Assembly: GCA_016212465.1 (NCBI GenBank)
Contig: JACRGE010000013.1
Location: 1 to 32,324, forward strand
Source: Candidatus Micrarchaeota archaeon
GTDB taxonomy: Archaea; Micrarchaeota; Micrarchaeia; Norongarragalinales; JACRGE01
Reading direction: 5' to 3'
Length of the DNA: 32,324 nt
Of the stretch, positions 916-23,858 are shown piece by piece (position 1 is the first letter of the stretch; every line of letters begins with the position of its first letter). The position numbers and the translations under genes were made by a program. The notes below the pieces were generated by a model that was not told the DNA's origin, ran no database searches, and saw only the letters and a list, made by a program, of their open reading frames with translations.

Positions 916-3306
916 ATGGGCACGGAATCTGAAGAGAAAGCATACCTGTTAATGGGTTTGCTGGCTTGCTCTGCACTTTTAATATATGCTGAATTGATAA
1001 ACGGATACCCGTTCCTGAACGACGACAACTATTCGCAGTTCTTGCCTGCGTTGCTTGTAGGGTTGAAGCAGCTGTTTGCTGGAACCATTCCCTTTATCAA
1101 CATGCACCAGATTGCTGGAACCCCCTTGCTTGAGATAGGGACTTACCCATTCTTCTATCCAGGAACAGTGGTTTCGTACCTTATATCCCACTGGTTCATT
1201 CAAGATGATTTCTCGCTAATTGAGGTTTTCGTCGTCACTCACCTGTTGCTTGGCTTCGTTGCAACATTCTATTTGGTGAAAAAACTTTGTGCGTCGAACC
1301 CCTTCGCATTCTTGGGGGGGATTGGGGCTTCGCTGTCTGGGTATATGATAATTGTTTCATCAAATTGGTACTATGCGGCGCCCACTGCATTTTTTCTGCC
1401 CCTTATATTCTTGCTGCAGGCCAAGAATTTGGAGGCGCCGTCCAAACGGAATGCTGTTGCAATGGGTCTAACAAGAGGCGTTTACTTCCTTTCCGGAAAC
1501 GTCCAGTACTTCGCATACTCCTTGTTCTTTGAACTCATATTCTTTGCGCTTTGGATGCTGCAGACGCCTGCTAAAAAAACGCATTCAACAATCAAAAGAG
1601 AGAGACTAACCAATTATATCCTTTCTTTGGCTATTTCCGGTGCAGTTGCACTTCCATTTGGGCTTATGATGTTATACAACACAGCCCACAGCTATGGCAG
1701 AACCGGGGCTGCTGGTCTAAGCGCGTATCTGACGACTCCGACTGCCAACCCAATAGACTTTTTCTTTGGCAACCTTTTGCCGTATCCATTCTATGGGGCA
1801 ATATTCAAATTCGCGAATTCGCCGTCTTCCTTCGGCAACATTTATTTCACTGGAGCCATATTCTTTTTAGCTGCAATCCTTGGAGGGATTCTTCTTTGGC
1901 GCAGGCACGGAAATAATCTTTTGGTCAAATACCCGTTTGCGACGCTTGCGTTGGTTGCGGCATTGCTCTCGTTCGGCGCATATGGCGGGCTGCACCTGCT
2001 TTTCCTACTCATTCCCATCTGGAACAAATTTAGCTGTCCCTTCAAGCTCGCGCTTTACGCAGATTTTTTCATCGTCCTTTTTGGTGTTCAGGTGCTTACA
2101 CAATTTTCTGGACGCTTTTCTGATGGAAGGTTCAAGAAAATGGTTTTGTTTGCGTTAAGTGTTTTCTTCCTCGGCCTAATGTTTTTGCAAGTGCATTACT
2201 CGTCAAAGACTCACTTCACTTACTTCAGCGACAGGCTTCCGTTGAACAGAAGCGAATTCAGCCAGTTTGCTGACGGGCGCACAGTAGCCTATTACACGAA
2301 CAGCTATTACGCTCCAGAAAACGGGCTCAGGCACGGAAAGCTGAATCACAGCGACTCGTCTTTCATGACAAGGAACTTTGCGAGCTACTATGAATTATAC
2401 AGCATCACGGGTTATGAGCCGTTGCAATCGGTTTCCCAAGTAACCAAGATACCGGTTCCCTGGGACAATATTGAGGGGCGCAGAGTTTCGCTCCAGTGGT
2501 TGTCTGAGTGGAGCGTCAAGTATTTGTTCGTCGCCTGCGACTCTCTCAAATACCATCCAGAACTCTGGAACCTTACTGTAGTCAAGAGTCTTGGAGAGAA
2601 GGGACTCGCCATATTAAAAAACGATGAAGCAAAATCCATCGTATTCTGCCAAGGAAACGGAAGGGTATCCTATTCATTTAAGGACAACGGACTTGAATTG
2701 AAGGCAAGGCTTGGATGCCCAGCCAACTGCACGGCAAGCGTTTTATACAACAAAAACTACAGATTGACGTTAAATGGGGAAGTGATTCCGCTCAAAGAAG
2801 ACGGCTTGGGCCGCATAGTGTTCGAGCTTCCAGCAGGTGAGAGCGAGGCGAGGCTTTACTACGAAAACAAACTATTTGAATATGGTGTATTTCTTGGGGT
2901 TGTTCTCCTTTTAATCATCCTCTTATTTTTCAGCTGGATTGAATCCATTATCAGCGGTTTGCTTGAATTCGTGACGCATAGAGTCAGAACAAGAACGTTA
3001 GCAATATTGGTTGGCCTCGTATTTCTCCTCCTGCTCGCAAGGGACATTTCAACGTTTCCTTTAGGCGTTCCAATCGATTGCTTAAGCAAACACAAGGCCA
3101 GTGCCGGAGAGGTATTCAAGTGCACGCGGCAGGGCCTGATTGAGGCAGGGGCCATGCGGCCTGATGTAACTGCGTTGAACAAAATCTCCACTCCCGTGGA
3201 AGAACCCTTTGAAAAAAAGCTGCGGCCGCCGCAGTGCAGTGAAGAGCTCAGAGTATTATCAAATACGGGCAACTCGACCAACGCACTAGCATTTCCATGG
3301 ACTTGA
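916..3306 (+). CDS. polytopic membrane protein of the GT-C glycosyltransferase type (YfhO/ArnT-like)
   Basis: 796 aa. More than 10 predicted TM helices at the N-terminus, an acidic NDDNY motif in the first extracytoplasmic loop, a large non-TM domain, then two C-terminal TM helices. No WWDYG (AglB/STT3) motif was seen. Confidence 0.5.
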   Translation: MGTESEEKAYLLMGLLACSALLIYAELINGYPFLNDDNYSQFLPALLVGLKQLFAGTIPFINMHQIAGTPLLEIGTYPFFYPGTVVSYLISHWFIQDDFSLIEVFVVTHLLLGFVATFYLVKKLCASNPFAFLGGIGASLSGYMIIVSSNWYYAAPTAFFLPLIFLLQAKNLEAPSKRNAVAMGLTRGVYFLSGNVQYFAYSLFFELIFFALWMLQTPAKKTHSTIKRERLTNYILSLAISGAVALPFGLMMLYNTAHSYGRTGAAGLSAYLTTPTANPIDFFFGNLLPYPFYGAIFKFANSPSSFGNIYFTGAIFFLAAILGGILLWRRHGNNLLVKYPFATLALVAALLSFGAYGGLHLLFLLIPIWNKFSCPFKLALYADFFIVLFGVQVLTQFSGRFSDGRFKKMVLFALSVFFLGLMFLQVHYSSKTHFTYFSDRLPLNRSEFSQFADGRTVAYYTNSYYAPENGLRHGKLNHSDSSFMTRNFASYYELYSITGYEPLQSVSQVTKIPVPWDNIEGRRVSLQWLSEWSVKYLFVACDSLKYHPELWNLTVVKSLGEKGLAILKNDEAKSIVFCQGNGRVSYSFKDNGLELKARLGCPANCTASVLYNKNYRLTLNGEVIPLKEDGLGRIVFELPAGESEARLYYENKLFEYGVFLGVVLLLIILLFFSWIESIISGLLEFVTHRVRTRTLAILVGLVFLLLLARDISTFPLGVPIDCLSKHKASAGEVFKCTRQGLIEAGAMRPDVTALNKISTPVEEPFEKKLRPPQCSEELRVLSNTGNSTNALAFPWT

Positions 3307-3317
3307 AAAACTCCAGC

Positions 3318-3944
3318 TTAATCACTTATTTCATAGCTCTTGATCAAACTCAGCTCTTCCTTTTCGCTAAGCGCATAAATTGAAAAGCGATCAAAATGAA
3401 ATGGTGAGTCAAGGCTTTCATTTTTAACCAGTTCCCAGGCGTTATGGAATTTGCTTGGGTCAATAGAGGCAAGAGAGAAATGGGGAATCAAAATATCACC
3501 GACAAACGGATAACCATATTCTCTCACGTTCTTCGCCAGAGCTTCTGGAAACGAATTAATCTTCTCCAAATAACGTTTTGGAATTGTTTTGGTGCGATAA
3601 GCCCTCAGACTATTGACCAGATTCACTTGAGCCCTCCTAATGGACTCAAGACTTTCTTTCTCTAGCATGCATACGATAGTCTCTTTTCCGGTTACGCTGT
3701 CATTAGAGAAAACGCTCCACTCCCTGACCCTAAAACTTTTTTTCTTGAGGCTCGCAGCGAATTTTTTCACGATGGTTTCAATGTCGGAAAAGCTCTTGAA
3801 ATCAGCTATATAGAGAGTGAGGTGTGGCTCGTCATCCAAATAAGTTTGTGGCCCAACCAAATTCCTTATACGCTTCTTTAGACGCATAAAGTGGTCATAA
3901 ATCCTTTGTTCTGGAATCAAGGCAAAAACCAGGAGCATGCACAC
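3318..3944 (-). CDS. 2H phosphoesterase superfamily protein (LigT/ThpR-like)
   Basis: Two H-x-T/S-x motifs, EPHLTLY and IPHFSLA, spaced as in 2'-5' RNA ligase and cyclic phosphodiesterase family members. Confidence 0.6.
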   Translation of the reverse strand: MCMLLVFALIPEQRIYDHFMRLKKRIRNLVGPQTYLDDEPHLTLYIADFKSFSDIETIVKKFAASLKKKSFRVREWSVFSNDSVTGKETIVCMLEKESLESIRRAQVNLVNSLRAYRTKTIPKRYLEKINSFPEALAKNVREYGYPFVGDILIPHFSLASIDPSKFHNAWELVKNESLDSPFHFDRFSIYALSEKEELSLIKSYEISD

Positions 3945-4039
3945 CCCTTTCTCAAATCTATCTTCAGGTTTTTAAGGAATAACCACAATTTAATATGTAG
4001 GGTTTGAAGGAAAGGGCATTTGAAACGGCCTAACAGACG

Positions 4040-4825
4040 GTGGGTCTATTGATCAACTTGATTCCGATGGCTGGATTAGGAAAAAGATTTGCCGACGAAG
4101 GCTATGCCTTGCCCAAGCCGCTCATTCCGGTTTCAGGCAAGCCCATGATAGTAATGGCCTTGAGCATGATGCCGAAGGCGGACATAACAATTCTCGTTTG
4201 CAGGAAGGAGCATGTCGAGCAATATCATATTGACAAGGAGATAAGCAAGCACATTTCCAACGTGCATTGTATTCCAATAGATTTCAACACAGAAGGCCAG
4301 GCGTGCACCTGTCTCTTGGCAAGGGATTTCATTGATACGAACGAACCTCTTTTCATCGGCGCGTGCGACAACGGCATGCTGTGGGATGAAAAAAAGTTTA
4401 AAGAACTCACTGAAGAAAAGGATTCTGACGTGGTGTGCTGGGCGTTCAAGGGACAAAATAATGTTTTGTTAAATCCAAACGCATGGGGCTGGATAAAAAC
4501 GAGAGAAGATGGAAAAACGATTGAAAGAGTTTCGGTAAAGGTTCCAGTCAGCGACAAGATTCTGAATGACCCTGCTGTAATCGGCTCTTTCTGGTTCAGG
4601 ACGGGGAAATTGTTCATTGAAATAGCAGAGGACTTGATTAAAAACAATATCCGGGTCAACAACGAGTTCTATGTTGATAGTTGCGTCGGTCATGCAATCA
4701 AGAGGGGTTATACCTCAAAGGTCTTCATCGTCGACCAATACGTGGGGTGGGGCACGCCCAAGGACTTGAGGGAATACGAGTTCTGGGAAAAGTACTTCTG
4801 TTTGAACAAAAGGTGTTCATTGTGA
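4040..4825 (+). CDS. nucleotidyltransferase (sugar-phosphate or alcohol-phosphate cytidylyltransferase-like, LicC/IspD/TarI-type)
   Basis: N-terminal LIPMAGLGKRF glycine-rich loop (G-x-G-K-R-F) followed by the architecture of small NDP-sugar/CDP-alcohol pyrophosphorylases. GTG start at 4040. The stop overlaps the next gene's start (GTGA). Confidence 0.6.
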   Translation: MGLLINLIPMAGLGKRFADEGYALPKPLIPVSGKPMIVMALSMMPKADITILVCRKEHVEQYHIDKEISKHISNVHCIPIDFNTEGQACTCLLARDFIDTNEPLFIGACDNGMLWDEKKFKELTEEKDSDVVCWAFKGQNNVLLNPNAWGWIKTREDGKTIERVSVKVPVSDKILNDPAVIGSFWFRTGKLFIEIAEDLIKNNIRVNNEFYVDSCVGHAIKRGYTSKVFIVDQYVGWGTPKDLREYEFWEKYFCLNKRCSL

Positions 4826-5547
4826 AGCCAGTTCTTTCAGTGGTCGCGCCGTGTTACAACGAGGAGAAAAGCGTTCCCTTAATTGCCCAAGCATTCTCTA
4901 CGGCGATCGGAAAGAGAAGGGGCATTGAAGTAATTCTGGTGGACAACGGCTCGGCTGATGGAACGCAGACTGAGATAAAAAAGCAGGCAAAAAAATATTC
5001 TTTCATTAAATTGGTAGTAGTCAAGAAAAACATCGGTTATGGATTCGGTATTCATTCAGGGTTAAAGCATGCTGCAGGAGAATATGTGGTATGGACGCAC
5101 GCGGATCTTCAAACAAATCCAGCGGACGTAATCAAGGCGCTTGAAATCATTCTCAAGCAAGAAAAGCCTGAAAAATGTTTTGTGAAAGGAAAAAGAAAGG
5201 GGCGGCCGTTCTTCGATGTTTTTTTCACTCTTGGCATGGCGGTATTCGAGTCTGTTCTCCTCCGGAAGGTTTTGTACGACATCAACGCCCAACCAAATCT
5301 CTTCCACAGGTCATTCTTAGAAAAAGTCCCGAACCCCCCAAACGATTTTTCCTTTGACCTATATTTCTATTACATGGCAAAAAGAATGGGATACAAAACA
5401 ATACGTTTTCCAGTTGAATTCAGGAAAAGGGTTTTCGGTCAATCACACTGGAACACTGGGCTTAAACAAACGTGGAAGTTCATAAAGAGAACCCTAGAGT
5501 ATTCAATTAAATTAAGGAAGTCACTGGAGGAGGAGTCGCATGCTTAA
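4822..5547 (+). CDS. family-2 glycosyltransferase, polyprenyl/dolichyl-phosphate sugar synthase-like (GtrB/CsbB/DPM1-like)
   Basis: LSVVAPCYNEEKSV, ILVDNGSADGT and THADLQ motifs match the GT2 DxD fold. I take the GTG at 4822 as the start (4-nt GTGA overlap with the upstream stop). The track ORF beginning at 4681 is an upstream extension that would overlap the previous CDS. Confidence 0.65.
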   Translation: MKPVLSVVAPCYNEEKSVPLIAQAFSTAIGKRRGIEVILVDNGSADGTQTEIKKQAKKYSFIKLVVVKKNIGYGFGIHSGLKHAAGEYVVWTHADLQTNPADVIKALEIILKQEKPEKCFVKGKRKGRPFFDVFFTLGMAVFESVLLRKVLYDINAQPNLFHRSFLEKVPNPPNDFSFDLYFYYMAKRMGYKTIRFPVEFRKRVFGQSHWNTGLKQTWKFIKRTLEYSIKLRKSLEEESHA

Positions 5548-6127
5548 GATAATCCACCGCGTAAACACCATCAAAGAATTAAATAAAATTCCAAAGGAGC
5601 TTGGGGTGGAGGTTGATGTCAGGAGCTGTGGAAAAGAACTTATTCTCAACCACGAGCCTTCTCGGTCAGGAGACTTGCTTGATGATTATCTGACGAATTT
5701 TGGGCATGCATTCATTATATTGGAAATAAAGGAAGAGGGAATTGAGCAAAGAGTGATTGATTTATGCAAGAAGCACGGCGTTGACAACTATTTTCTTCTC
5801 AGTGTGTCTTTTCCATTTATTTACTTGCTTTCAAAGAAAGGTTTTAAAAAGCTCGCGCTACGCTTCTCTGAATTCGAGTCCATTGAAACCTGTTTGGCCA
5901 TGAGAGGAGAAGCAGAGTGGGTGTGGGCGGATACATTTGAGAAAAATCCATTGAAAAAAGAAGCTTATGAAAAACTGAAGGAAGCTGGATTCAGGATTTG
6001 CTTCGTTTGCCCATCGCGCTGGGGCAGGCCGCATGATATAAGAAATTATAATAATTACTTTAAAGAAAACGGTATTGAGCTGGATGCAGTCATGACCTCA
6101 GCAAAATACTTGGCGGAGTGGGGCTAA
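5540..6127 (+). CDS. GDPD/PLC-like phosphodiesterase superfamily protein
   Basis: N-terminal IIHRVNT...EVDVR...ILNHE resembles the HR...E.D...HD catalytic pattern of glycerophosphodiester phosphodiesterases, in a shortened 195-aa form. The start overlaps the upstream stop (ATGCTTAA). Confidence 0.4.
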   Translation: MLKIIHRVNTIKELNKIPKELGVEVDVRSCGKELILNHEPSRSGDLLDDYLTNFGHAFIILEIKEEGIEQRVIDLCKKHGVDNYFLLSVSFPFIYLLSKKGFKKLALRFSEFESIETCLAMRGEAEWVWADTFEKNPLKKEAYEKLKEAGFRICFVCPSRWGRPHDIRNYNNYFKENGIELDAVMTSAKYLAEWG

Positions 6128-6137
6128 TCCTCGCGAG

Positions 6138-8585
6138 ATGGATTTTTTTAATTTTAATAGTTTAAATATCTCTATTTATTTCTCAAGTGATTGGATGGAA
6201 GCAGAGGAAAAAATAATTGCACTATTTAACCCGCTCATGAGAAGGTTTTTCCGCAAGGAGCCTGGTTTCAACGAAAGAGTACGACTTTTGTTTAACTATG
6301 TTTTGAAAAACCAGTTTCTCAGGTTTTGTTTAGTCGGCGGGATTGCGACCATAGTCAACTATGCAGTTTTTCTTCTGTTTCTGTTGTTCTTCCACATCAA
6401 CTATCTCGTTTCCTCTGCTGTGGGATATGTTTCAGGCGTTTTTGTAGGATTCGACTTGAACAAGAAATTCACTTTCAAATCCGAGTCGAAGGAGTACTAC
6501 TCGGAAGTGATGGAGTACTTCGCGGTTTATACCATTTCGCTTTTTCTGGGTTTGGGCTTCCTGGCTTTTCTGGTAAACCTTAAACTGAATGTACTGCTTG
6601 CAAACGTTTTTTCCATAGCCCTCACCACGATGACCAATTTCTTGGGCGTGAAGTTCTTTGTTTTCAGCGATGCGGTATTTCATAAAAAAATAAATTTCTT
6701 GATCTACAGGTACCGTTATCTCCTAAATTACATGATCATTGGACTAAGTTCTATTATCGTCGAGATTGCCATCCTCTACTTCCTCGGACTGGGTTACGGC
6801 GATTTTTACCTTAAACTGCCTATCGGATTTTTGTCTGGTGTGTTGTTCAGCTACTACCTGAATGCAAAGCTCAACTTCAAGGTTCCAAAGGAAAAGAATT
6901 GGAGAACCTTCCGAATATTCCTCATAATTTCCGTATTCGCTTTTGCGTTAAACCTGCTTTTAATGAAGGTTATATACGGTCTGTTCATTTTCTCAAACTA
7001 CTCTGTTTCAAGACTCTTTACTTCCGCATGTATTTTCATGATAAGCTACTCGCTTCACAGGAGATTCACCTTCACTGACGTAAAGGAGGTTGGCGTCGCA
7101 ATTTATCTTTCAGATGGGGAAGATCTTGGGGAGATAAAGTCCAAAGTAAAACACTACCCGGATTTCATTCACTTGGATTTAGTGGACAAAACATATGCTC
7201 CTAGTGCAGCCAAAGTAGATCTCGATATGGCTGAACAGGTAGCGAGGGAATGGCCCCTTCTCCCCAAGATGCTTCACGTAATGTCTCGCCATCCAATCAA
7301 ATGGATTGAATCTGCTCACACGCAAGCCGATTACATCGTCTTCCACGCGGAAAGTGATGAAGACCCAAACAAGGTTATAAGTCTTTGCAGAAGACTCGGC
7401 AAAAAAGTCGGCATTTCCGTTCGAGTGGACACGAATCTGAAAGAAATCGAGAAATATTTCAGCAAAGTAGATCTTGTTCAAATACTGGGCATAAGGAACC
7501 CAGGCTATTCCAACCAGCACATGGAGGCCGAGGCGTTGGAGAAACTGCGCGAGCTCAACCAATACAGGAAGAGATATCCCTTTGAAGTCTGCATGGACGG
7601 CGGGGTCAAGCTCACCAACATCCACTTGATTGATGCGAGATATATCGTGTCAGCTTCCTCCGTGCTGAAATCAAGCGATTCGGTGAAAGCAATCTATGAT
7701 TTAAAGACCAGCGCCAGGTATTTCTACGATTACGACAAGAATTTCGTGAAGTTCATTGAAACTGAAGTCAAAAACGCTGTGGAGCGGCTTGATTTCATTG
7801 AATCTGGAACGTTTGTAGGCTCATTCGCCGAAAAACCGGGGCTCGAGGGCATCGCGGACATAGACGTAGTAATCATAGTGGATAAGCTAACCAGACAAAA
7901 ATATGGGAAGTTGTTGGCTCAGTTTGAGGAATTGAAGGAAATAATCAAAACTGATTTCGGCTATGACCCTGTAGTAAACCCGACTTTTGGCCCATTGAAA
8001 TTCAATTCAAGCGAAAAATCCGTTGTCCTTCATGTGATGATATACGACATAGCCGGGCACGTGGAGCACTGCAAGGAAAGTCCTTTCACATGCTTGGACT
8101 GGCAACGGTCGCCCCGCTATTTCAAGAAACCCATGTCATACTTCTGCGAAGTAACGTGCCTCAAGCCAAACGATTTCTTCAACGCCAGGCGCTCGGTGAG
8201 CGACTACTTGAAGGACCTCAAGAACTCCAGGATCTCCTACAGGGAATACGAGTTCAACGGCACTGCAACTAAACAAGTGAAGAAATACGTTCCAATGGGC
8301 AATAGGGACCGCTTTGAGTTCTCTTATCACATCATGAAATTCTGCATGCTGAATTTCCTGAAGCTCTACACTAAAAGCAATTACTGGGGCTCACCAGAGG
8401 GGATTGTGGATTCTTATTTCGACGTGTTTGGAGTTAATGCCGAGCAGCACAAAAAGTTTTTCTTTGACTTGCGTGAATTCAAGTTGCAGAACCGGTTCCC
8501 GAATTGGTCTGACAAGCACGAGGCAGGCATTTACGAATTCCTGAAAGACTTCGAAACCCAGTTCAAGGGATATTTCTATGACTAA
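6138..8585 (+). CDS. multidomain membrane protein: two GtrA-like 4-TM modules + ribulose-phosphate-3-epimerase-like TIM barrel + pol-beta-superfamily nucleotidyltransferase-fold (LicD/fukutin- or MNT-like) domain
   Basis: Residues ~60-180 and ~190-310 each form a GtrA-like set of helices (FCLVGGIATIVNYAVF...; YRYLLNYMIIGLSSIIVEIAILYF...). Residues ~320-520 carry IHLDLVDKTY, LHVMS, FHAESD, ILGIRNPGYSNQ and CMDGGVK, which line up with the RPE motifs H-x-D, HLMV, FH-E, NPGFGGQ and VDGGV. Residues ~560-600 read GTFVGSFAEKPGLEGIADIDVVIIVD, i.e. the G[ST]xxG...DxD nucleotidyltransferase-fold motif. Confidence 0.6.
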   Translation: MDFFNFNSLNISIYFSSDWMEAEEKIIALFNPLMRRFFRKEPGFNERVRLLFNYVLKNQFLRFCLVGGIATIVNYAVFLLFLLFFHINYLVSSAVGYVSGVFVGFDLNKKFTFKSESKEYYSEVMEYFAVYTISLFLGLGFLAFLVNLKLNVLLANVFSIALTTMTNFLGVKFFVFSDAVFHKKINFLIYRYRYLLNYMIIGLSSIIVEIAILYFLGLGYGDFYLKLPIGFLSGVLFSYYLNAKLNFKVPKEKNWRTFRIFLIISVFAFALNLLLMKVIYGLFIFSNYSVSRLFTSACIFMISYSLHRRFTFTDVKEVGVAIYLSDGEDLGEIKSKVKHYPDFIHLDLVDKTYAPSAAKVDLDMAEQVAREWPLLPKMLHVMSRHPIKWIESAHTQADYIVFHAESDEDPNKVISLCRRLGKKVGISVRVDTNLKEIEKYFSKVDLVQILGIRNPGYSNQHMEAEALEKLRELNQYRKRYPFEVCMDGGVKLTNIHLIDARYIVSASSVLKSSDSVKAIYDLKTSARYFYDYDKNFVKFIETEVKNAVERLDFIESGTFVGSFAEKPGLEGIADIDVVIIVDKLTRQKYGKLLAQFEELKEIIKTDFGYDPVVNPTFGPLKFNSSEKSVVLHVMIYDIAGHVEHCKESPFTCLDWQRSPRYFKKPMSYFCEVTCLKPNDFFNARRSVSDYLKDLKNSRISYREYEFNGTATKQVKKYVPMGNRDRFEFSYHIMKFCMLNFLKLYTKSNYWGSPEGIVDSYFDVFGVNAEQHKKFFFDLREFKLQNRFPNWSDKHEAGIYEFLKDFETQFKGYFYD

Positions 8586-9210
8586 ACTCTATTTCATCAG
8601 ACACCCCAAGATCGGCTTGAATGTTGGAACCAAGTTTGTCGGTCAACGCACGGACGCAGAGGCTTCCTTGAATGAACCTGAGTTGAACGCGTTGTGGAGT
8701 AAACTAAGGGACAAGATTATAAGCTCGATATTCACTTCCCCACTCAGAAGGTGCTTGGACACTGCGAGGCGCATCCAGGAAAAAAGCGGCATTCCTCAAA
8801 TAACAATCGACAACAACCTAAAGGAAATAGATTACGGCGAAGCAGACGGGAAGGACTTGGAGTTCTTGAAAAAGAACTATCCTAGGATAATTAGGGAATG
8901 GAGTGAGGGAAAAGACCCGCGCTTTCCAGGCGGGGAAAATTATGCGGACGTTTTGCAGAGAGTAAATTCGTTCCTTGCCAATTTCAAAAAAGGGCTTAAG
9001 CAAAATTGCGTGGTTTTCACTCACAACGTTTTTTTGCGGGTGTTGCTTGGTTCGCAGTTGAACATCCCGAGAAATAGATGGTATAAAATAAGGATTGAAC
9101 ACCTAGACCCCTACGAGGTGATAGTCACGAGAGACGGTAAGGTGTTCGTCAATTTGTCCAAGGAGCAGTCAGACAATTTGTTTTCAAGCCTGTGCGTCCA
9201 AACAAAGTGA
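8578..9210 (+). CDS. histidine phosphatase superfamily (phosphoglycerate-mutase-like) protein
   Basis: LYFIRHPK near the N-terminus, SPLRRCLDTA, EIDYGEADG and VVFTHNVFLRVL match the RHG, SPL-R and H motifs of the family. Overlaps the upstream stop (ATGACTAA). Confidence 0.55.
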   Translation: MTKLYFIRHPKIGLNVGTKFVGQRTDAEASLNEPELNALWSKLRDKIISSIFTSPLRRCLDTARRIQEKSGIPQITIDNNLKEIDYGEADGKDLEFLKKNYPRIIREWSEGKDPRFPGGENYADVLQRVNSFLANFKKGLKQNCVVFTHNVFLRVLLGSQLNIPRNRWYKIRIEHLDPYEVIVTRDGKVFVNLSKEQSDNLFSSLCVQTK

Positions 9211-9215
9211 AAACC

Positions 9216-10499
9216 TTAACCTACTCTGTCCAAGTAGAAGGTCGCAAAACCGTATGCACCGCGCCGAAGGGTTATATTCTTGTCCAAGGAGTACCGCGTT
9301 TGCGTATAACCGTCTTTGGCAAGCGACACTTTGTAAGTTCCGTCAGGTACTTCGTCCTCGGGGTATATCTTGAAGGTTCCTTGTAAATCAGTCAGTTTCA
9401 GATACTCCTTTACGGGGGCGTCTGTCCGCGCATCCCTCAAGGTAACAGTCACGTTAGTGAGACCAGTCTGGTTCCTTGAGTGCCTTACAATCCCCATAAA
9501 CAGAGGATACTCACCCAGGGTGAAGTTTATAACGTAAATGTGGTCAGCATCAACAACTTGATTGTAGTAGTCACTCATAAGCATGGAGTGGGAAGCCATG
9601 ATCCTGTAAGCTCCTGCAGAATGCGTCTTGTTGATGAAGTAGTAACCAAATTCGTCTGCTCTTGCTTCATCCACTTTCCTGAGTTCCCCAGTAAAGTTAC
9701 TGTAAGCGAATTTCAGTACCATAATTAATGCACCCCTCAATGGGACCCAGTTTTTGCTTACAACAGTACCATACAAGAAAGGCGGCGTAAGCCACACAAA
9801 TTCGTTCTGGTAACTACCTTTGTAGGCTACGACTTTTTCTGTTGCCAAGAACCCTCGTTTGTAGAACTTAAGTTTAAGAAGAGAGTTTGGACGAATGCCG
9901 TCTATGGCGTATATTCTAAACGTACCAATCCGGTCTGTTAACATGCTCTTCAAGAGAGTGGTTCCATAGCTGTCGTAGACGTCAACCCGAACCCATCCAA
10001 CCCGCCTTTGACTCCGTGCATCAGAAACCACTCCATAGAGCAGTGGCTTTTCCATCAAGGTAAAATTGACTTGAAGTGGACTGCCCTGGACTATGAATGG
10101 GAAAAAATACTCGGTCTGAAGCCCCTCGTAATAAACTACGAGCATGTACGCGCCTGTGGAAAAAGCCTGGCCAAAGAAGTAACTGCCGTTTTCGTTCGTC
10201 AACGTCTCAGCTATTTCAGTAAAGTTGCCAGTAAAGTTATCGTATGCGAACTTGAATACAAAAACTGCCGCGTTTTTCAGAGAGATGTTATTCCAGCCGT
10301 AAACCACTCCTTTAAGTGAAGCGTTTGCTTCAGTTACATTTGTTTCTATTCCCTTGGTCGTCAGCGCGCCAGTTGTTTTTCTCGTCAATTGAGCGCTTGA
10401 AGCCATTTCTTCGAAATAAATCAGCTGAAATAACACGAAGCCTGCGACAACAAGCGCTACCACAAAACCCAAAGCAAACAACCGCACTTCCCGGTACAT
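9216..10499 (-). CDS. N-terminally anchored surface protein with about four carboxypeptidase-regulatory-like beta-sandwich repeats, rich in N-glycosylation sequons
   Basis: One N-terminal TM helix, then repeats of about 100 aa with the recurring pattern YG.V.....G....V.V.D..G....TD..G.F.I. There are 13 N-x-S/T sequons in 427 aa. Confidence 0.5.
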   Translation of the reverse strand: MYREVRLFALGFVVALVVAGFVLFQLIYFEEMASSAQLTRKTTGALTTKGIETNVTEANASLKGVVYGWNNISLKNAAVFVFKFAYDNFTGNFTEIAETLTNENGSYFFGQAFSTGAYMLVVYYEGLQTEYFFPFIVQGSPLQVNFTLMEKPLLYGVVSDARSQRRVGWVRVDVYDSYGTTLLKSMLTDRIGTFRIYAIDGIRPNSLLKLKFYKRGFLATEKVVAYKGSYQNEFVWLTPPFLYGTVVSKNWVPLRGALIMVLKFAYSNFTGELRKVDEARADEFGYYFINKTHSAGAYRIMASHSMLMSDYYNQVVDADHIYVINFTLGEYPLFMGIVRHSRNQTGLTNVTVTLRDARTDAPVKEYLKLTDLQGTFKIYPEDEVPDGTYKVSLAKDGYTQTRYSLDKNITLRRGAYGFATFYLDRVG

Positions 10500-10630
10500 G
10501 GTTATTTTAAGGGATTTGCTGTATAAAATTGCTTTCTACCGCCGAGAGTGCCCAAAAAGTACGATTGAAACCACATCTGCCCAAAACGGGAGATAAAAAC
10601 AGGAATTAAGGGAAGCGCTCCACCTCGTAG

Positions 10631-11653
10631 TCAGGTAGAACGCAGGATATGCTCACAACCAGAGGGGTCCAGGAACTGCATGAAAAGAAACAACTTGAGA
10701 TACCCGAGATAAGGGATCCGGTAGAGGATTTTCCCATGGGCGTGGTTTTCTTTCACTGGTTCGATCCCATAGAGCTGGTCAGGAAACTGGTTGTTGTCAC
10801 CCCAAGTCAGGTAGTAAGTACCGTCGTCCGCAACTATTTTCAAAAAAACACGGTGGATGATGAGACCGTATCCTTTTTCTTTTGGGAGTGCACCGTATAC
10901 AATGATTTCATCTGAGGCGTTTCTAAGAAACGTCTTTCCTTCGTAGGAAATGCTTTTCAAACAAGGAACGATCGTACCCTCCCAATCGCATCTGCCGGCA
11001 TTCAGCTCAAACAATTCCTTGTCATCCAAAACAGGGGCATACAGTTGAACTGCCTTATCCTCGCTGAAGGGAAGCTCTTTTGCAGCAAAACGCACTTTAG
11101 AGAAATCCCCGTTGAAGCGTATTGTCTGAGCTTCTACATAGCCCCCTTTCAAGACTATCATGTCGCCCCGCTCCAAGACAGGGAGCATGCTACAGGAGGT
11201 CACAACATCAATGGGGGTAGTAGTACCGAGAGCAGCTATTATCACGAACCACCCCGCAAGTGCAACGTCAAGCGCATAAACCAGCTCAAGTATTGAGTCC
11301 CTTATTCCTTCGTGGTCCCATTTTTTGGGAACGATATCCAATGCGAAAAGTAGGACAAGGCCCAAAAAAATTAAGACCGCGAAAGCAACTTCCTTGGTGA
11401 GGAGGTAGAGAGCGAAAGAAAGCACGAGCAAAGCAAGAGCAGCGTTGCCCCAGTTGAACCCCTTTACTTTTTCGGGTTTTGTTTTAGGAAGACGGACGTG
11501 ATCCAACAGAAGGTAGATTCCAGCCAGGATCAAAACTAAAACGAAGAGAACCACGCCAATGAAATTGTCTGTTGCAACCCCTAGGTAAAGCGAGCCCAAG
11601 ACAGCGAAAAGGAAGCCAGCGTAGATTGAAAACCTTTTTTTAAGAAAGTCCAT
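10631..11653 (-). CDS. signal peptidase I, archaeal/Sec11 type (S26B), with an N-terminal multi-TM extension
   Basis: Four N-terminal TM helices, then VVTSCSMLPVLERGDMIVL (the Ser motif), HRV and GDNN motifs typical of archaeal/ER-type signal peptidase. Confidence 0.65.
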   Translation of the reverse strand: MDFLKKRFSIYAGFLFAVLGSLYLGVATDNFIGVVLFVLVLILAGIYLLLDHVRLPKTKPEKVKGFNWGNAALALLVLSFALYLLTKEVAFAVLIFLGLVLLFALDIVPKKWDHEGIRDSILELVYALDVALAGWFVIIAALGTTTPIDVVTSCSMLPVLERGDMIVLKGGYVEAQTIRFNGDFSKVRFAAKELPFSEDKAVQLYAPVLDDKELFELNAGRCDWEGTIVPCLKSISYEGKTFLRNASDEIIVYGALPKEKGYGLIIHRVFLKIVADDGTYYLTWGDNNQFPDQLYGIEPVKENHAHGKILYRIPYLGYLKLFLFMQFLDPSGCEHILRST

Positions 11654-11687
11654 GAACGCGCACCAACCAGATATACCATTCCAGGCT

Positions 11688-12251
11688 TTAAGCTCTTCCC
11701 CTGGACTCGCCTAAAACCACTCCAGAAGCAATAAGGTGAGCGAGCCTCAACGGCCAAGGGTATCCCTTGAAAGTTTTCAGAAATCCTCTTGAGTCAGCCG
11801 CGGAAATCCCCGCGCAATGAAAATGCAGCCTGTTGAACTCAAAGGATTCGCCGGCGTTTTTCAGCAATGCCGCACGCTTCTTCCAGTCCCGCAAGTTTTT
11901 TAATGCTGAAAGCACTTTTTTTTCATCCGCTTTTTTCCTCGTAACTGCAATAACTGGAATTTTAAGGAATTTGTAGACTTTCTTCAAGTCTAGTATATTG
12001 AAGCCCCCTAGGGTCACGCTGTGAACAAGAATCAGCCTTATCTGCTTGCCGAAACGCCCTGATTTCCGTATGGTAGAGATAAGCTTGTCAGTCGAATTCA
12101 GTCCATCTTTCTTTATGTGAAATGAAAGTATTCCCTCAACCGATTCATCTGAAGCTCCGCGGGAAACCACTCCGATGCAAAGCACTTTTGCTCCACCTAC
12201 TTTTTTGAAGGGAGAATCATCGATTGAAAGGACTCTTATTCCTTTTTTCAT
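11688..12251 (-). CDS. UPF0215/DUF99 family protein
   Basis: MKKGIRVLSIDDSPF...GVVSRG...GFNILD...PVIAVT matches the conserved archaeal DUF99 pattern. Confidence 0.5.
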   Translation of the reverse strand: MKKGIRVLSIDDSPFKKVGGAKVLCIGVVSRGASDESVEGILSFHIKKDGLNSTDKLISTIRKSGRFGKQIRLILVHSVTLGGFNILDLKKVYKFLKIPVIAVTRKKADEKKVLSALKNLRDWKKRAALLKNAGESFEFNRLHFHCAGISAADSRGFLKTFKGYPWPLRLAHLIASGVVLGESRGRA

Positions 12252-21223: not shown

Positions 21224-21724
21224 ATGAGAAATGAAACTGCGATAATAATCGGTATAACCGTTTTTTTGGTTGCTTTCCTTGCCGTGCAACATTTTTTCCC
21301 CCGCACCGAATACGTTGTTGACGGAATAAGAATCTTAAGCAAGGAGAATCCAAAGAATGCAATTGCACGGATTGCGGGAAGAGCTGACGTGGTTATGAAA
21401 CTGGAGGCGCCTGGAGAAAACTCTTCCAACATATGCGTAATCCAAATGGCTTCCGAGATAACGAAGGCACTTGCGTCCGTGAACAAGACTCCAGCCATTT
21501 ACGCGAATGACGCGAATTCAACGAAATGCCTTTTCATCGGAAACAAGAGTGTTGACTGCCCTGACGGCTCAACCAAGGGACTCATTCTAGTGCAAATGGG
21601 CTCCTGCAACTGCATTAAGATAGAAGGAAGCGTGTTGGAGATAAATGGGGACAAGAGGTTCATGTGTGAAACCGAGAATGCGAAGAAGATAAGCTCCATG
21701 ATTGGCTATGCAGTAAGCGGTTGA
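21224..21724 (+). CDS. hypothetical small protein with an N-terminal signal/anchor
   Basis: 166-aa ORF with one N-terminal hydrophobic helix and several N-x-S/T sequons. No recognisable family. Confidence 0.3.
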   Translation: MRNETAIIIGITVFLVAFLAVQHFFPRTEYVVDGIRILSKENPKNAIARIAGRADVVMKLEAPGENSSNICVIQMASEITKALASVNKTPAIYANDANSTKCLFIGNKSVDCPDGSTKGLILVQMGSCNCIKIEGSVLEINGDKRFMCETENAKKISSMIGYAVSG

Positions 21725-21869: not shown

Positions 21870-23858
21870 TTACAGGAAGTACTGGAAGTTGATTTTGCTT
21901 TCCTCCAATTTCTTCAATTCCTCTCGCACTCTTTTTGCATGCTCTTGGATTTCGTTAGTCCCTTCTGCCGAAATGTGCTTGTACCTTCCCTGAAGCTTCA
22001 GATAAGGTTCTACTGGTTTGAGTTCCGCAGGGGAGTAAGTGAACTTAAACAAGCCATTTTCTATTTCAAACAAGTTCCATAGGCCGCATTCAACCGCGCT
22101 TCTGGCTACGCCAACAGTCTGGTTGTTTGGAAAACGCCAGGAAAGAAAACAAGGGGCGTGAACCACAATGAAACGGAATCCGGTCATCGCCTTTGCTTTC
22201 TTCAGCTTTTTCTCAAAGTCAGGTAGGAATCCTATTGAAGCGGTTGCGGAATAAGGGACTGCGTGAGCAGTTGCAATGAACGCGACGTTCTTCTTCCACT
22301 CGTGTTTTCCACCCACTTCAGCAGGAGAAGTGGTAGTGGAAGCAAGAAATGGGGTGGCGCCACTTCTCTGAACTCCTGTGTTGTGAACAACGATGCCATC
22401 AGCGATGAAGTTATGCTCCCCCTCTACTCTTAAATCCAATGTTGGCTCTGTTCCTATTAATTTTTTGTATTTTACCTTCTCCATTTCAAAATACTGATTC
22501 CTTATTAAAAAGTTCTGGTACGTATACTGGCTTGGATATTTTTTGATATTCCACTCTTTTTTTTCTGAAAAGCAGATATACCCCCCTTCTGTGTCCTCTA
22601 ACAAATTTCTATAAACAATTTTAGTGCCTTTTTTTGTTTTTCGCCAATGTATTTTTCCAACCCTATAGTTCATGGTTTGCAAAAGCAGCCTAAGCCTATT
22701 TAGGAGATCACGACTTGATGAAACGAACCTAAAGCTGTTTTCAACCTTGTAGCCATCCGTTGATACGAGACCTCTGACAAAAGCTTTCTTTTCTTCTTTC
22801 GGAATCGTGAATACCCATTCGGGAATTGTTTTATTTTTTGCTCCATGACCAAAACCCATAGAATCAATAAATCTTGCCAAGTTTACTGAATTGATGTATA
22901 AGTAGTTGCTATCAGTTCTGCTCACCCTGTTTTTAAAAATACGCGAGTGCAACCAAATCAATCTTTTTCTTTCCTTGCTTTTTTCTGGTAATGCGAATCC
23001 AGTTTCTGCCTTTTTGATTCTACACCATCCATCACCGACATACATACCGAGATATTCCATCAACTCGGGGCTAGATTTTTCGGGTATTGAGATGAAATTT
23101 ATTTTATTTACTTTATAGTCGCCTTTTTTTGAAAGTCTTATATTCTTAAACCTGAAAGACTCGGCAATTTCAAGGTTCTTTAGTACAACTACCTCATCAC
23201 CGATGTTAATCTTTGCAAGTGTCTTCCAGATCAGTGTGTTTTGCTTGCCTCTTCCATTTCTCTTTAGTATTAAAAAAGGATGATTTGAAGTTGCTTTTAT
23301 AGAGTGGTGTGATGTCTCTAATTCAAACACTGGTTTTTCACCATTGTCGAATACACCCGTGCATTTTTTAAGTATTGGCCTGTATGTTTTTTGATTAAAT
23401 GCATAGATTTTATCCCCCTCCTTAATTTCCATTATTTTTTTAATACCATGTTCTGTCATTATCAGTGTTGAGCGGCTCAAACAGTTCGCATAGCATTCGT
23501 TGTCGTAGCATATGCAAACCATATCCTCATTGCGTTCCATCGCCCCGCTCAATGCGCCAAAGCCTATGTCGTAAATGCCACCGTCTCCGCCAACGCAGAC
23601 TGAAACCCCTTTCTTCTTCTCGTGCTTTAAAGCCCGAGACACTCCAGATGCAACTGCGGGAGTGTTTTCAAAGAGCGAATGAATCAAAGGAACGTTCCAA
23701 GTGGAGTTAGGGTATTTCGTGCTTGTTACTTCCATGCAGCCTGTTGCAAGAGAAACAATTATATCTTCACCAAGTCCAGCGAGGAGGTTTCGAATAGCGA
23801 TGGCCGGCCCACACCCCGGGCATGACTTGTGTCCCTTGAAATACAGTTCTTTTTCCAT
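21870..23858 (-). CDS. porB: 2-oxoacid:ferredoxin oxidoreductase beta subunit (TPP-binding, PorB-like), interrupted by an intein
   Basis: N-extein HKSCPGCG...VCVGGDGGIYDIGF...CYDNECYAN and C-extein TGVQRSGATP... to the end rejoin into a protein of about 294 aa with a contiguous DNE.Y.NTG.QRS TPP-binding motif. Confidence 0.8.
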   Translation of the reverse strand: MEKELYFKGHKSCPGCGPAIAIRNLLAGLGEDIIVSLATGCMEVTSTKYPNSTWNVPLIHSLFENTPAVASGVSRALKHEKKKGVSVCVGGDGGIYDIGFGALSGAMERNEDMVCICYDNECYANCLSRSTLIMTEHGIKKIMEIKEGDKIYAFNQKTYRPILKKCTGVFDNGEKPVFELETSHHSIKATSNHPFLILKRNGRGKQNTLIWKTLAKINIGDEVVVLKNLEIAESFRFKNIRLSKKGDYKVNKINFISIPEKSSPELMEYLGMYVGDGWCRIKKAETGFALPEKSKERKRLIWLHSRIFKNRVSRTDSNYLYINSVNLARFIDSMGFGHGAKNKTIPEWVFTIPKEEKKAFVRGLVSTDGYKVENSFRFVSSSRDLLNRLRLLLQTMNYRVGKIHWRKTKKGTKIVYRNLLEDTEGGYICFSEKKEWNIKKYPSQYTYQNFLIRNQYFEMEKVKYKKLIGTEPTLDLRVEGEHNFIADGIVVHNTGVQRSGATPFLASTTTSPAEVGGKHEWKKNVAFIATAHAVPYSATASIGFLPDFEKKLKKAKAMTGFRFIVVHAPCFLSWRFPNNQTVGVARSAVECGLWNLFEIENGLFKFTYSPAELKPVEPYLKLQGRYKHISAEGTNEIQEHAKRVREELKKLEESKINFQYFL
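22380..23483 (-). mobile_element. intein (368 aa) with a LAGLIDADG homing-endonuclease domain, inserted in the TPP-binding motif of porB
   Basis: Starts with Cys (CLSRSTLIM), has a TxxH block (LETSHHSIKAT), two LAGLIDADG-like blocks (LMEYLGMYVGDGW and FVRGLVSTDGY), and ends ...FIADGIVVHN followed by Thr at +1. Short hand-counted samples give about 33% GC for the intein versus about 42% for the flanking extein. Confidence 0.8.

Follow-up and report, generated by a model that had tools for sequence, protein, structure and literature searches.

A widely shared gene cassette in a Micrarchaeota archaeon, candidate for making a lipid-linked sugar from ketopentose 5-phosphate

We analyzed a window of 32,324 nt (the whole stretch of DNA studied; Candidatus Micrarchaeota archaeon contig JACRGE010000013.1, GCA_016212465.1) and in particular its region 916-10499. 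We propose, with confidence and doubt in about equal measure, that this locus is one copy of a cassette that would make a lipid-phosphate-linked sugar from ketopentose 5-phosphate and pass it to a polytopic GT-C-type transferase at the outer face of the membrane. The cassette is widely shared yet unstudied. It may supply a route that has been missing for rare sugars, for example xylulofuranose, and its donor pathway from ketopentose 5-phosphate would be a dedicated and undescribed one. Four kinds of direct observation underlie this reading: the families to which the enzymes belong, the integrity of their catalytic residues, the fusions between genes and the synteny.

The first-pass annotation had listed a GT2, GtrA modules and a polytopic transferase, and this parts list stands. 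Every open reading frame it had described is present at the coordinates given, and direct reading of the sequence confirmed the overlapping start and stop codons (GTGA at 4822-4825, ATGCTTAA at 5540-5547 and ATGACTAA at 8578-8585). The GT2 (4822..5547, plus strand) is a polyprenyl-phosphate glycosyltransferase of the DPMS/GtrB/ArnC type with a soluble catalytic domain (PF00535, E = 4e-19) and a conserved ADLQ motif. Its best PDB relatives were ArnC (9e-12), P. furiosus DPMS (PfDPMS; 1.5e-9, residues 5-210) and GtrB sll0501, and its GTG start at 4822 fits the point where the homologue alignment begins. Two GtrA/DPMS-type 4-TM modules (6321..7067, plus strand; PF04138, E = 1.2e-36, two stretches) are N-terminal in an 815-aa fusion protein (ORF 6138-8585). 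Their TM segments lie in residues 60-287, and they may act as a flippase for the lipid-linked sugar or as a membrane anchor. Bacterial orthologues have one GtrA module, fused to the epimerase described below.

The candidate for the final extracytoplasmic transferase is a 796-aa polytopic membrane protein (916..3306, plus strand) with approximately 10 TM segments and a large loop at 430-650. The Pfam scan of this protein gave no match. Alignment with Pfam-annotated YfhO by hhalign gave a probability of 88.8% (E = 2.5e-6, 362 columns); the GT-C identity, which rests on this one match, is plausible and not proven. In its family the motif D36-D37-N38..Q41-F42..P44 (DDN..QF.P), located just past TM1, is invariant. 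The family has only 6 clusters in a database of 5.8 billion proteins. Its members adjoin the cassette in loci L003, L009, L018, L022 and L032 and in the variant locus L008; in L009 the orthologue, 46% identical, is placed after the cassette. A large polytopic protein adjoins the cassette at nearly every cellular locus. At other loci these neighbours are PMT_2, DUF6798, GT87 or STT3-type proteins, and homology between them is absent for most pairs of loci, which is reminiscent of the variable GtrC. The 10-kb flanks of Pelagibacter locus L036 contained no large polytopic protein (≥400 aa, ≥6 TM segments). Taken from sequence, three-component extracytoplasmic glycosylation is quite probably the function of these parts.

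The remaining genes encode putative donor-making enzymes. The sugar-phosphate nucleotidyltransferase of the RmlA/GalU fold (4040..4825, plus strand) matched PF00483 with 28 bits only (E = 2e-6) and has an AGLGKRF loop. Its top NCBIfam match was rmlA_long (49.7 bits, cutoff 320) and it scored under every NCBIfam cutoff, so it was not classified as a plain glucose-1-phosphate nucleotidyltransferase. The top PDB match of its family profile was, over the full length, 4EVW (E = 2e-14), an uncharacterised NDP-sugar pyrophosphorylase. The fusion protein continues with a ribulose-phosphate 3-epimerase-like (RPE) domain (7074..7721, plus strand; PF00834, E = 1.7e-25), which aligned end to end with human RPE (3OVP) and in which the metal and catalytic residues H345, D347, H380, M382 and D487 are invariant. 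The histidine phosphatase (8578..9210, plus strand; branch 1, PF00300, E = 6e-32) is CobC-like, with conserved catalytic residues R8, H9, R58, E83 and H149. Both fell under their NCBIfam equivalog cutoffs (97.7 bits against 165 for RPE, 114.5 against 162.9 for TIGR03162 cobC), therefore their substrates may depart from the textbook ones. A 2H (LigT/CPDase-type) cyclic phosphodiesterase (3318..3944, minus strand, divergent from the operon) was omitted from the first-pass annotation and is a member of the conserved set. It matched PF13563 with 28.9 bits (cutoff 27) and, weakly, DUF1045 and TIGR03223; both H-x-T/S motifs are there (H41-L-T43 and H155-F-S), with H41, T43 and H155 at least 93% conserved. 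The 195-aa product of 5540..6127 (plus strand) is a phosphodiesterase of the GDPD/PI-PLC fold for which the Pfam scan gave no family.

The C-terminal part of the fusion protein (7722..8582, plus strand) had been called LicD/fukutin-like, and this was not borne out: none of 28 family members matched Pfam LicD, and 26 of 28 matched NTP_transf_2. We assign it to the pol-beta-type nucleotidyltransferases; it carries a helical subdomain at its C-terminus and resembles ANT(9)/AadA (ANT). Since K, R and H are invariant at many of its positions, its substrate may be a phosphorylated sugar. Synteny likewise gave no support for including the neighbouring surface protein (9216..10499, minus strand, convergent with the operon), which has no homologue in related loci and whose membership is doubtful. 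This protein has an N-terminal anchor, CarboxypepD_reg repeats (PF13620, E = 1.7e-19, three stretches) and 13 N-X-S/T sequons, where 2.6 were expected and 0 of 2000 shuffles reached 13.

Genes for GtrA-RPE, ANT-histidine phosphatase, 2H, nucleotidyltransferase, GT2 and GDPD, often fused, occur together in approximately 35 independent loci, therefore the grouping is not due to chance. RPE was present in 35 of 36 loci, ANT, histidine phosphatase and 2H in 32 each, the nucleotidyltransferase and GT2 in 31 each, GDPD in 28 and AraD in 26. The hosts are DPANN archaea, Thermoplasmatota, Patescibacteria, Marinimicrobia, SAR11, Bacteroidota and Actinomarina, so that both archaea and a minimum of five bacterial phyla are represented; the cassette is horizontally spread and conserved. 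The 2H orthologues come after the fusion gene in 32 of 36 loci. Single GtrA-GtrA-RPE-ANT-histidine phosphatase proteins of approximately 990 aa occur among the homologues, and bacteria have separate GtrA-RPE and ANT-histidine phosphatase fusions. The phosphatase was at the C-terminus of the fusion in most of 32 homologue clusters (in all of P0001-P0017). Further fusions join 2H to the phosphatase (L014) and the nucleotidyltransferase to GT2 (L012). The loci sit within polysaccharide or O-antigen gene clusters. This strong synteny agrees with the earlier view that a dedicated sugar-phosphate/nucleotide module is joined to the glycosylation parts and travels with them.

AraD is not present in this window; elsewhere AraD genes scored 274 and 365 bits, over the NCBIfam cutoff of 257, so the recognisable sugar enzymes of the cassette are ketopentose-5-phosphate enzymes. 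Ketopentose 5-phosphate is thus probably the source of the donor. An independent sister variant was found on an E. coli IncR plasmid, on an Azospirillum plasmid and in L043, L071 and L072. It keeps the nucleotidyltransferase, GtrA, GT2 and GDPD genes and lacks 2H; instead of ANT and the histidine phosphatase it encodes a kinase resembling phosphoribulokinase (NF005655, 205 bits) and a HAD protein. The top match of the HAD was ribulose-1,5-bisphosphate 5-phosphatase (NF053830, 168 bits); the haloarchaeal enzyme behind this model yields cyclised ribulose-1-phosphate (PMC9700705). This pair of enzymes in a parallel variant points to O1 and O5 chemistry on a ketopentose, not to a CDP-alcohol, and supports a logic shared by both variants in which O1 is phosphorylated and the 5-phosphate is removed. 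The nucleotidyltransferase domain of sister variants is a tandem duplicate, which could be a catalytic/regulatory pair and not two steps. Giant-virus contigs also bear the sister version, entirely soluble and without GT2 and GtrA; there GDPD and two nucleotidyltransferase domains are on one polypeptide, therefore the GDPD-fold enzyme belongs to nucleotide-sugar synthesis. A link to a xylulose-containing serogroup was not shown: one E. coli carrier was checked, and its O-antigen cluster is of the O35 type.

From these data we infer the identity of the sugar and the order of steps. The membrane-tethered RPE domain would convert ribulose-5-phosphate to xylulose-5-phosphate; in most relatives the added AraD would give L-ribulose-5-phosphate. 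The ANT-like domain would then attach a nucleotidyl-phosphate to one of the hydroxyls of the sugar, O1 being the likeliest, and the histidine phosphatase would strip the 5-phosphate, which would free the ketose for furanose ring closure. The GDPD-fold enzyme would cleave or cyclise the phosphodiester, and the 2H esterase would open the cyclic phosphate and leave phosphate on the anomeric O2. The RmlA-fold enzyme would form the NDP-sugar, GT2 would move the sugar to polyprenyl phosphate, the GtrA modules would flip it and the YfhO-like protein would hand it to a surface polymer. That the sugar is kept as a ketopentofuranose, here xylulofuranose, is a tentative assignment, and the order of the cyclic-phosphate steps is conjectural. 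To our knowledge there is no precedent for NDP-ketopentoses, for a DPMS-type GT2 that takes a ketose donor or for an RmlA-fold enzyme whose substrate is a ketose 2-phosphate.

It is unlikely, in our view, that the donor is instead an aldopentofuranose (L-Araf, D-Xylf or D-Ribf). Such a sugar would be held as a furanose by its 5-phosphate while the NDP-sugar is formed and until polyprenyl phosphate has received it. The histidine phosphatase would then remove that phosphate from the lipid-linked form, in the manner of Rv3807c or the PRP domain in PRPP-dependent systems, and ANT, GDPD and 2H would install the 1-phosphate via a 1,2-cyclic phosphate. Known pentofuranose three-component systems do transfer first and remove the 5-phosphate after (PMC11127046). 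The phosphatase resembles CobC, whose substrate is an alpha-riboside 5'-phosphate, and the families weakly matched by 2H, DUF1045 and TIGR03223, are annotated with phosphonate metabolism. Ribose-1,2-cyclic-phosphate-5-phosphate occurs in the phosphonate pathway, and anomeric 1''-phosphates are products of CPDase-type 2H enzymes; both points favour this reading. However, no aldose-ketose isomerase was recognised in ANT-type or kinase-type cassettes, and the phosphoribulokinase-like kinase and RuBP-5-phosphatase-like HAD of the kinase-type variant would take off the 5-phosphate before lipid transfer, not after.

The first-pass annotation was right about three-component glycosylation parts with a joined dedicated module; its proposal that a CDP-activated phospho-alcohol or phospho-pentose is transferred by a LicD/fukutin-type enzyme did not hold up. 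In the form that we weighed, and find improbable, the RmlA-fold enzyme would make CDP-linked pentulose-5-phosphate or pentitol-5-phosphate, and the pol-beta domain (LicD/FKRP-like) would add a phosphodiester decoration, for example on the GT2-made lipid-linked sugar, before flipping and transfer. In its favour, the pol-beta nucleotidyltransferase superfamily also takes in LicD, fukutin and FKRP, and the RPE-Zn-ADH fusion and nucleotidyltransferase domains of L008 recall CDP-pentitol synthesis by TarJ/TarI or AbpA/B. Against it stand the missing LicD matches and the ten ORFs scanned in 916-12251, in which neither a CDP-alcohol phosphatidyltransferase model match nor a reductase was found. It also gives the conserved GDPD-fold, 2H and phosphatase enzymes no role. 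Further points against it are the phosphatase fused to the nucleotidyltransferase-fold domain in nearly all family members and the GDPD and tandem nucleotidyltransferases kept by giant viruses without GT2 and GtrA.

A non-surface role, with the cassette making or recycling a cytoplasmic or membrane small molecule (glycolipid, compatible solute or nucleotide-derived metabolite) and GtrA as anchor only, would suit the unconserved polytopic partner, the L036 flanks, the soluble giant-virus versions and the description of PF04138 as a GtrA/DPMS transmembrane domain that may simply tether GT2, but is very unlikely given the polytopic neighbours at nearly all cellular loci (several of them PMT_2, YfhO-like, GT87 or STT3), the surrounding polysaccharide or O-antigen clusters, and the nearest solved relatives of GT2, which all produce polyprenyl-phosphate sugars for extracytoplasmic use.

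We compared the cassette, read as a ketopentose pathway, with known systems. With LicD/fukutin/FKRP phosphotransferases (CDP-ribitol or CDP-choline) it shares the broad pol-beta superfamily and a tie to ribulose-5-phosphate, the compound from which CDP-ribitol is formed, and differs by the 0 of 28 LicD matches and by the ten scanned ORFs having no phosphatidyltransferase or reductase. The aminoglycoside O-nucleotidyltransferases ANT(9)/AAD(9) and AadA/ANT(3'')(9) are approximately 10% identical to the ANT-like domain, which in contrast forms part of a sugar-phosphate pathway, is joined to a histidine phosphatase in one protein family and lies outside a resistance-gene context. Three proteins of the sister cassette recall the haloarchaeal non-carboxylating pentose bisphosphate pathway (RuBP 5-phosphatase, Ru1P aldolase; PMC9700705): the RuBP 5-phosphatase-type HAD, the kinase resembling phosphoribulokinase and a protein of the class II aldolase fold. 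They imply a ketopentose-1-phosphate intermediate. The haloarchaeal route is a catabolic one with DHAP and glycolaldehyde as end products, whereas the sister-cassette enzymes accompany nucleotidyltransferases and GT2, and the window has ANT-like and histidine phosphatase domains in their place.

PRPP-dependent pentofuranose systems (Citrobacter ORF12-15, GT136; mycobacterial DPPR/DPA; PMC11127046) also have a pentose-phosphate-derived lipid-linked donor, a phosphatase removing the 5-phosphate, auxiliary epimerases setting the sugar, a flippase and a GT-C. The cassette differs in having neither a UbiA-type phosphoribosyltransferase nor PRPP; its lipid-transfer enzyme is a Leloir-type GT2 needing a nucleotide sugar. 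Its RPE and AraD would act on soluble ketose phosphates and not on lipid-linked sugar, its flippase would be GtrA and not MATE, and nothing in those systems corresponds to its ANT-like, GDPD-fold and 2H enzymes. GtrA/GtrB/GtrC O-antigen glucosylation and CsbB/GtcA/YfhO teichoic-acid glycosylation share the DPMS/GtrB-type GT2, the GtrA-family 4-TM module and a polytopic transferase (YfhO-like in this locus), and the polytopic partner varies by locus as GtrC does while the other parts are conserved. Unlike in those systems, GtrA is fused to donor enzymes and GT2 itself lacks a TM anchor. Those systems use housekeeping UDP-Glc or UDP-GlcNAc, whereas the cassette has 5-6 extra enzymes that would provide it with a donor derived from a pentulose phosphate.

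The locus opened with a gene for a 796-aa polytopic protein (916-3306, plus strand), followed by a gene for a 2H protein on the minus strand (3318-3944). Five plus-strand genes came next. They encoded an NTP-transferase of the RmlA/GalU fold (4040-4825), a GT2 (4822-5547), a GDPD-like protein of 195 aa (5540-6127), an 815-aa fusion protein with the domain order GtrA-GtrA-RPE-ANT-like (6138-8585) and a histidine phosphatase (8578-9210). We confirmed that the ORFs named in the first-pass annotation exist. The three start/stop overlaps that it described (GTGA, ATGCTTAA and ATGACTAA) were all present, and therefore the five genes from 4040 to 9210 look like a single operon. The 2H gene was divergent from this operon, with a spacer of 95 bp between them. 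The window is the complete contig (32,324 bp) of a Candidatus Micrarchaeota MAG, and two of its proteins were identical to HY991_00425 and HY991_00445 of NCBI.

Downstream of the operon, on the minus strand, we found the gene of a surface protein (9216-10499) with 13 sequons, where 2.6 were expected. This protein had been taken as a part of the system, but it was not conserved alongside the cassette. Just upstream of its gene, on the same strand, was the gene of an archaeal signal peptidase I (10631-11653), a protein of 340 aa in total with a long N-terminal multi-TM extension. The remaining contig carried housekeeping genes of archaeal type (LonB, an exosome subunit, endonuclease dU, PheRS, the archaeal signal peptidase). 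We also observed a gene of a TPP enzyme of the 2-oxoacid:ferredoxin oxidoreductase beta type (21870-23858, minus strand), into which an intein that carries a LAGLIDADG homing-endonuclease domain is inserted (PF14890, PF14528). Two ORFs gave no match in Pfam, namely a 385-aa ORF (23877-25034, minus strand), which directly adjoined a gene of a POR/OFOR alpha-type subunit, and a 166-aa ORF (21224-21724, plus strand). No tRNA and no Rfam family was found in the window.

The RPE domain of the fusion protein matched PF00834 (E = 1.7e-25) and aligned end to end with human RPE. The barrel, the metal ligands and the catalytic residues were kept, with H345, D347, H380 and D487 invariant. Since the domain scored under the NCBIfam equivalog cutoffs (97.7 vs 165), its textbook substrate is only putative. 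The last 290 residues of the fusion protein had a confident predicted structure (pLDDT 89). This C-terminal part had been called LicD/fukutin-like. We observed that NTP_transf_2 of Pfam matched 26 of the 28 members of its family, while LicD matched none (0/28), and therefore we replaced this name with ANT-like O-nucleotidyltransferase. Searches of PDB sequences with the domain, either as a single sequence or as a profile, returned chance-level matches only. The family had 264 representatives among 1.84 billion proteins, and nearly all of them were either ANT-HisPhos proteins of about 480 aa or full fusions.

The separate histidine phosphatase matched PF00300 (E = 6e-32). The RHG motif and the catalytic Arg, Glu and His of branch 1 were present in it, and R8, H9, R58, E83 and H149 were kept. 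Its best model was CobC, yet the score was under the equivalog cutoff (114.5 vs 162.9). The product of 3318-3944 matched PF13563 (28.9 bits vs a cutoff of 27). It had the motifs HLT and HFS, with H41, T43 and H155 kept in 27 sequences, and with both H-x-T/S motifs it is a predicted 2H cyclic phosphodiesterase. The 195-aa protein was without a Pfam family. Its TIM-barrel fold and its catalytic constellation His/Arg...Glu/Asp...His were those of the GDPD/PLC-like superfamily. It was far commoner than the fusion protein, with more than 360 clusters of homologues. It accompanied the same NTP-transferase and often also the GT2, and no homologue of it was found in the GenBank phage collection. In one Uhrbacteria assembly (L005/L006, GCA_001791195.1) the GDPD-like gene lay within a nonulosonic/amino-sugar cluster, together with HAD, two NTP-transferases, a transketolase, a second faint GDPD, an Exo_endo_phos protein and WavE, as a core of NTP-transferase and GDPD without GT2.

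A plain glucose-1-phosphate nucleotidyltransferase, an identity that would have spoken against the first-pass annotation, was rejected for the product of 4040-4825, because the protein was far under every equivalog cutoff (the top match, rmlA_long, gave 49.7 bits vs 320). What it shared with RmlA, GalU and RfbF was limited to the fold and the G-x-G-x-R loop near the N-terminus, and its best solved relative was 4EVW, an uncharacterised structural-genomics protein.

The finding of the first-pass annotation is real, and its parts list was largely right. The GT2 matched PF00535 (E = 4e-19) and kept the ADLQ motif. Its closest solved relatives were ArnC, the P. furiosus Dol-P-Man synthase (PfDPMS) and GtrB, all of them polyprenyl-phosphate glycosyltransferases, and it has the features of a predicted polyprenyl-phosphate-sugar synthase of the GtrABC and CsbB-GtcA-YfhO systems. 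GtrA, a small family with 4 TM segments, was represented by two modules in the 815-aa protein (PF04138, E = 1.2e-36). These modules were joined to enzymes instead of standing alone.

The 796-aa protein is a candidate GT-C transferase. We counted about 10 TM segments in it, and TM1 was followed by an invariant DD motif. Pfam and PDB sequence searches gave no match, and the family profile against PDB was also empty. A single hhalign match linked it to a Pfam-annotated YfhO (probability 88.8%, E = 2.5e-6). Its relatives were few. A 46% orthologue was found directly after the cassette in one related locus (L009), and members of the family flanked the cassette in four others (L003, L018, L022, L032) and also in a variant locus (L008). 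In a Pfam scan the polytopic neighbours of the cassette (n = 30) were mixed: PMT_2 (five times), DUF6798, GT87, STT3 and Wzy_C, with many without a family. Apart from the YfhO-like group, jackhmmer found no family shared by the neighbours of different loci. The polytopic partner thus differs between the loci, which recalls the variable GtrC.

The proposal that the genes travel together held in relatives. We analyzed 36 loci, 31 of them from a scan of GTDB species genomes and the rest from metagenome contexts. RPE was present in 35, ANT, HisPhos and 2H in 32 each, the NTP-transferase and the GT2 in 31 each, the GDPD-like gene in 28 and a class II aldolase-fold gene in 26, with the missing genes partly resulting from short contigs. 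This co-occurrence ruled out chance juxtaposition. The aldolase-fold gene scored above the NCBIfam AraD cutoff in 2 of 3 tested cases and, judged by its sequence, is a genuine AraD L-ribulose-5-phosphate 4-epimerase in the ANT-type loci; it was absent from the window. The full fusion protein was rare: in a set of 5.8 billion proteins its homologues formed just 32 clusters, and most of these clusters also had the C-terminal histidine phosphatase. In bacteria the archaeal fusion corresponded to two proteins, GtrA-RPE and ANT-HisPhos. Other fusions joined HisPhos with 2H (L014) and the NTP-transferase with GT2 (L012). Among the archaeal hosts were Woesearchaeota, Pacearchaeota, Nanoarchaeota and Thermoplasmatota. 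Among the bacterial hosts were Patescibacteria/Saccharibacteria, Marinimicrobia, Pelagibacteraceae (including one complete genome), Cytophagales/Chitinophagia/Flavobacteriales and Actinomarina. Public annotations of the cassette proteins were generic or 'hypothetical', and a literature search on GtrA with RPE, AraD or YfhO/archaea/pentose, on Xulf and on giant-virus phosphoribulokinase returned no description of the cassette. By its gene content, we assign the locus to an uncharacterised cassette of wide distribution, with predicted roles in donor synthesis and glycosylation.

Further, we identified a sister cassette, in which a phosphoribulokinase-like (PRK) kinase and a HAD replace ANT and HisPhos. 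In CPR bacteria the GDPD-like gene adjoined two NTP-transferase genes. The sister cassette was found on an E. coli IncR plasmid (L044, NZ_CP145712.1, 6022-14984) and on an Azospirillum brasilense plasmid (L045, NZ_CP032350.1). The gene order in L044 was NTP-transferase-NTP-transferase, GtrA, GT2, GDPD-like, a polytopic-PRK kinase fusion, HAD, class II aldolase-fold protein and polytopic protein. L045 had the same genes, with those of the aldolase-fold and polytopic proteins upstream of the NTP-transferase pair, and its neighbours were wzm/wzt-like ABC transporter genes and gmd. The best model for the kinase was phosphoribulokinase (205 bits), and for the HAD it was the haloarchaeal ribulose-1,5-bisphosphate 5-phosphatase (168 bits), whose product is cyclised ribulose-1-phosphate (PMC9700705). 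The 2H enzyme was missing from this type. In both cassette types the first enzyme is tethered to the membrane, as GtrA-RPE in the window and as polytopic-PRK in the sister. PRK-family kinases joined to GtrA-like or polytopic membrane domains in one protein were also seen in two homologue clusters (P0031, P0032) and in a further locus (L043:2434-4497). Among 5426 complete E. coli genomes the kinase-type cassette occurred in 2, on a plasmid both times; the one carrier checked for a link with xylulose serogroups, S1-CAM-01-A, had an O35-type wzx/wzy cluster.

Viral versions were present on 39 IMG/VR contigs, mostly low-GC giant-virus MAGs (L050-L086, e.g. L055:2586-10241; GC 0.21-0.30). They recurrently encoded a PRK-like kinase, a RuBP-5-phosphatase-like HAD fused to a class II aldolase-fold domain, and a GDPD-NTP-transferase-NTP-transferase triple fusion, mostly without GT2 or GtrA. 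The bins could hold misassigned contigs, but the low GC and the recurrence argue otherwise. The viral trio may represent the donor pathway proposed below in soluble form. The triple fusion suggests that the GDPD-fold enzyme and two nucleotidyl-transfer domains form a unit which makes an activated sugar, and membrane parts would be added to it where the sugar serves outside the cell. The tandem NTP-transferase domains may instead be a catalytic/regulatory pair. A variant locus (L008:3317-22002) had two YfhO-like proteins, a pair of GT2 and GDPD-like genes, a tandem NTP-transferase, a fusion of RPE with a Zn-alcohol dehydrogenase, an AP_endonuc_2 barrel and a B12-radical SAM enzyme, and the product of this locus may instead be a pentitol or a modified pentose. 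For its 527-aa protein we rejected a C-terminus of the ANT or LicD type, as this protein is the tandem NTP-transferase.

The recognisable sugar enzymes of both cassette types (RPE, AraD, phosphoribulokinase-like, RuBP-5-phosphatase-like) all belong to ketopentose-phosphate families, and no aldose-ketose isomerase was recognised in either type. Roles could be mapped from one type to the other. Activated phosphate would be placed on O1 by the ANT-like domain in the window and by the kinase with the first NTP-transferase in the sister. The 5-phosphate would be removed by the histidine phosphatase or the HAD, and stereochemistry would be set by RPE and AraD or by the aldolase-fold protein. The GDPD-like enzyme, the last NTP-transferase, GT2 and GtrA are shared. 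This mapping points to a ketopentofuranose as the donor sugar and, since RPE is present and AraD absent, to D-xylulofuranose in the window. We therefore put forward, as a doubtful proposal, that the cassette and its sister represent a previously unknown activation of 2-ketopentofuranoses (xylulofuranose, L-ribulofuranose) as nucleotide sugars. After activation of O1, loss of the 5-phosphate would make ring closure possible. The GDPD-fold enzyme, together with the 2H esterase in the window, would then shift the phosphate from O1 to the tertiary anomeric O2 via a 1,2-cyclic phosphate. The second nucleotidyltransferase would give the NDP-ketopentofuranose, and GT2 would consume it as a conventional NDP-sugar. 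We infer this order of steps from the predicted enzymes. We know of no kinase that phosphorylates the tertiary anomeric O2 of a pentulose. Cyclising mechanisms have precedents in PI-PLC and GDPD, and CPDase gives the 1''-phosphate when it opens ADP-ribose 1'',2''-cyclic phosphate. Direct nucleotidylation of ketoses has a precedent of the CMP-Kdo type.

Xylulofuranose is a rare glycan constituent, whose donor pathway is not known (PMC7685785, PMC8707391, PMC11380512, PMC9614988). Several O-antigens and capsules of bacteria contain it, as do chlorovirus glycans, and its activated donor was never identified. Sources include E. coli O95/O97, Yersinia enterocolitica O:10, C. jejuni RM1221, Devosia polysaccharides and chlorovirus N-glycans (PMC7685785, PMC11380512, PMC8707391, PMC9614988). 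A review of E. coli O-antigens gives NDP-D-Xulf without genes and states that no nucleotide-activated Ribf was demonstrated (PMC7685785). If our proposal is true, the ketopentofuranose route would be the missing xylulofuranose donor pathway, common to archaea, bacteria, plasmids and giant viruses. The cassette, which would lead from central pentose phosphates to a lipid-linked donor, is compact and portable, and it would be a testable candidate for this pathway. Nucleotide-sugar synthesis may here involve an O-nucleotidyltransferase, a GDPD-fold enzyme and a 2H esterase, which would be new enzymology. The cassette spans DPANN archaea, CPR bacteria, SAR11, Marinimicrobia, Bacteroidota and an E. 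coli plasmid, with the soluble form on giant-virus contigs. It may be a common determinant, so far overlooked, of how surface antigens vary among abundant environmental microbes, and it could be used as a glyco-engineering module.

Among known systems, the CDP-alcohol chemistry suggested at first was probably wrong in kind. No CDP-alcohol phosphatidyltransferase (PF01066) was detected among the ten ORFs scanned (916-12251, E <= 0.01), and by its predicted enzymes the locus is neither a LicD/fukutin nor a CDP-alcohol system. In its predicted logic the locus resembles the PRPP-dependent pentofuranose systems (PMC11127046), which likewise start from a pentose phosphate and use a 5-phosphatase, epimerases and a flippase; their GT-C would correspond to the candidate GT-C of the locus. 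The UbiA-type polyprenyl phosphoribose synthase, which defines the GT136-type PRPP systems, was found neither among the scanned ORFs of the window nor among the Pfam-annotated called genes of related loci, and GT2 stands in its place. The GtrABC and CsbB-GtcA-YfhO systems are those which the locus would resemble in the way it works, with GT2 and GtrA represented and a candidate for the GT-C. What distinguishes the locus from them is a putative donor pathway of its own.
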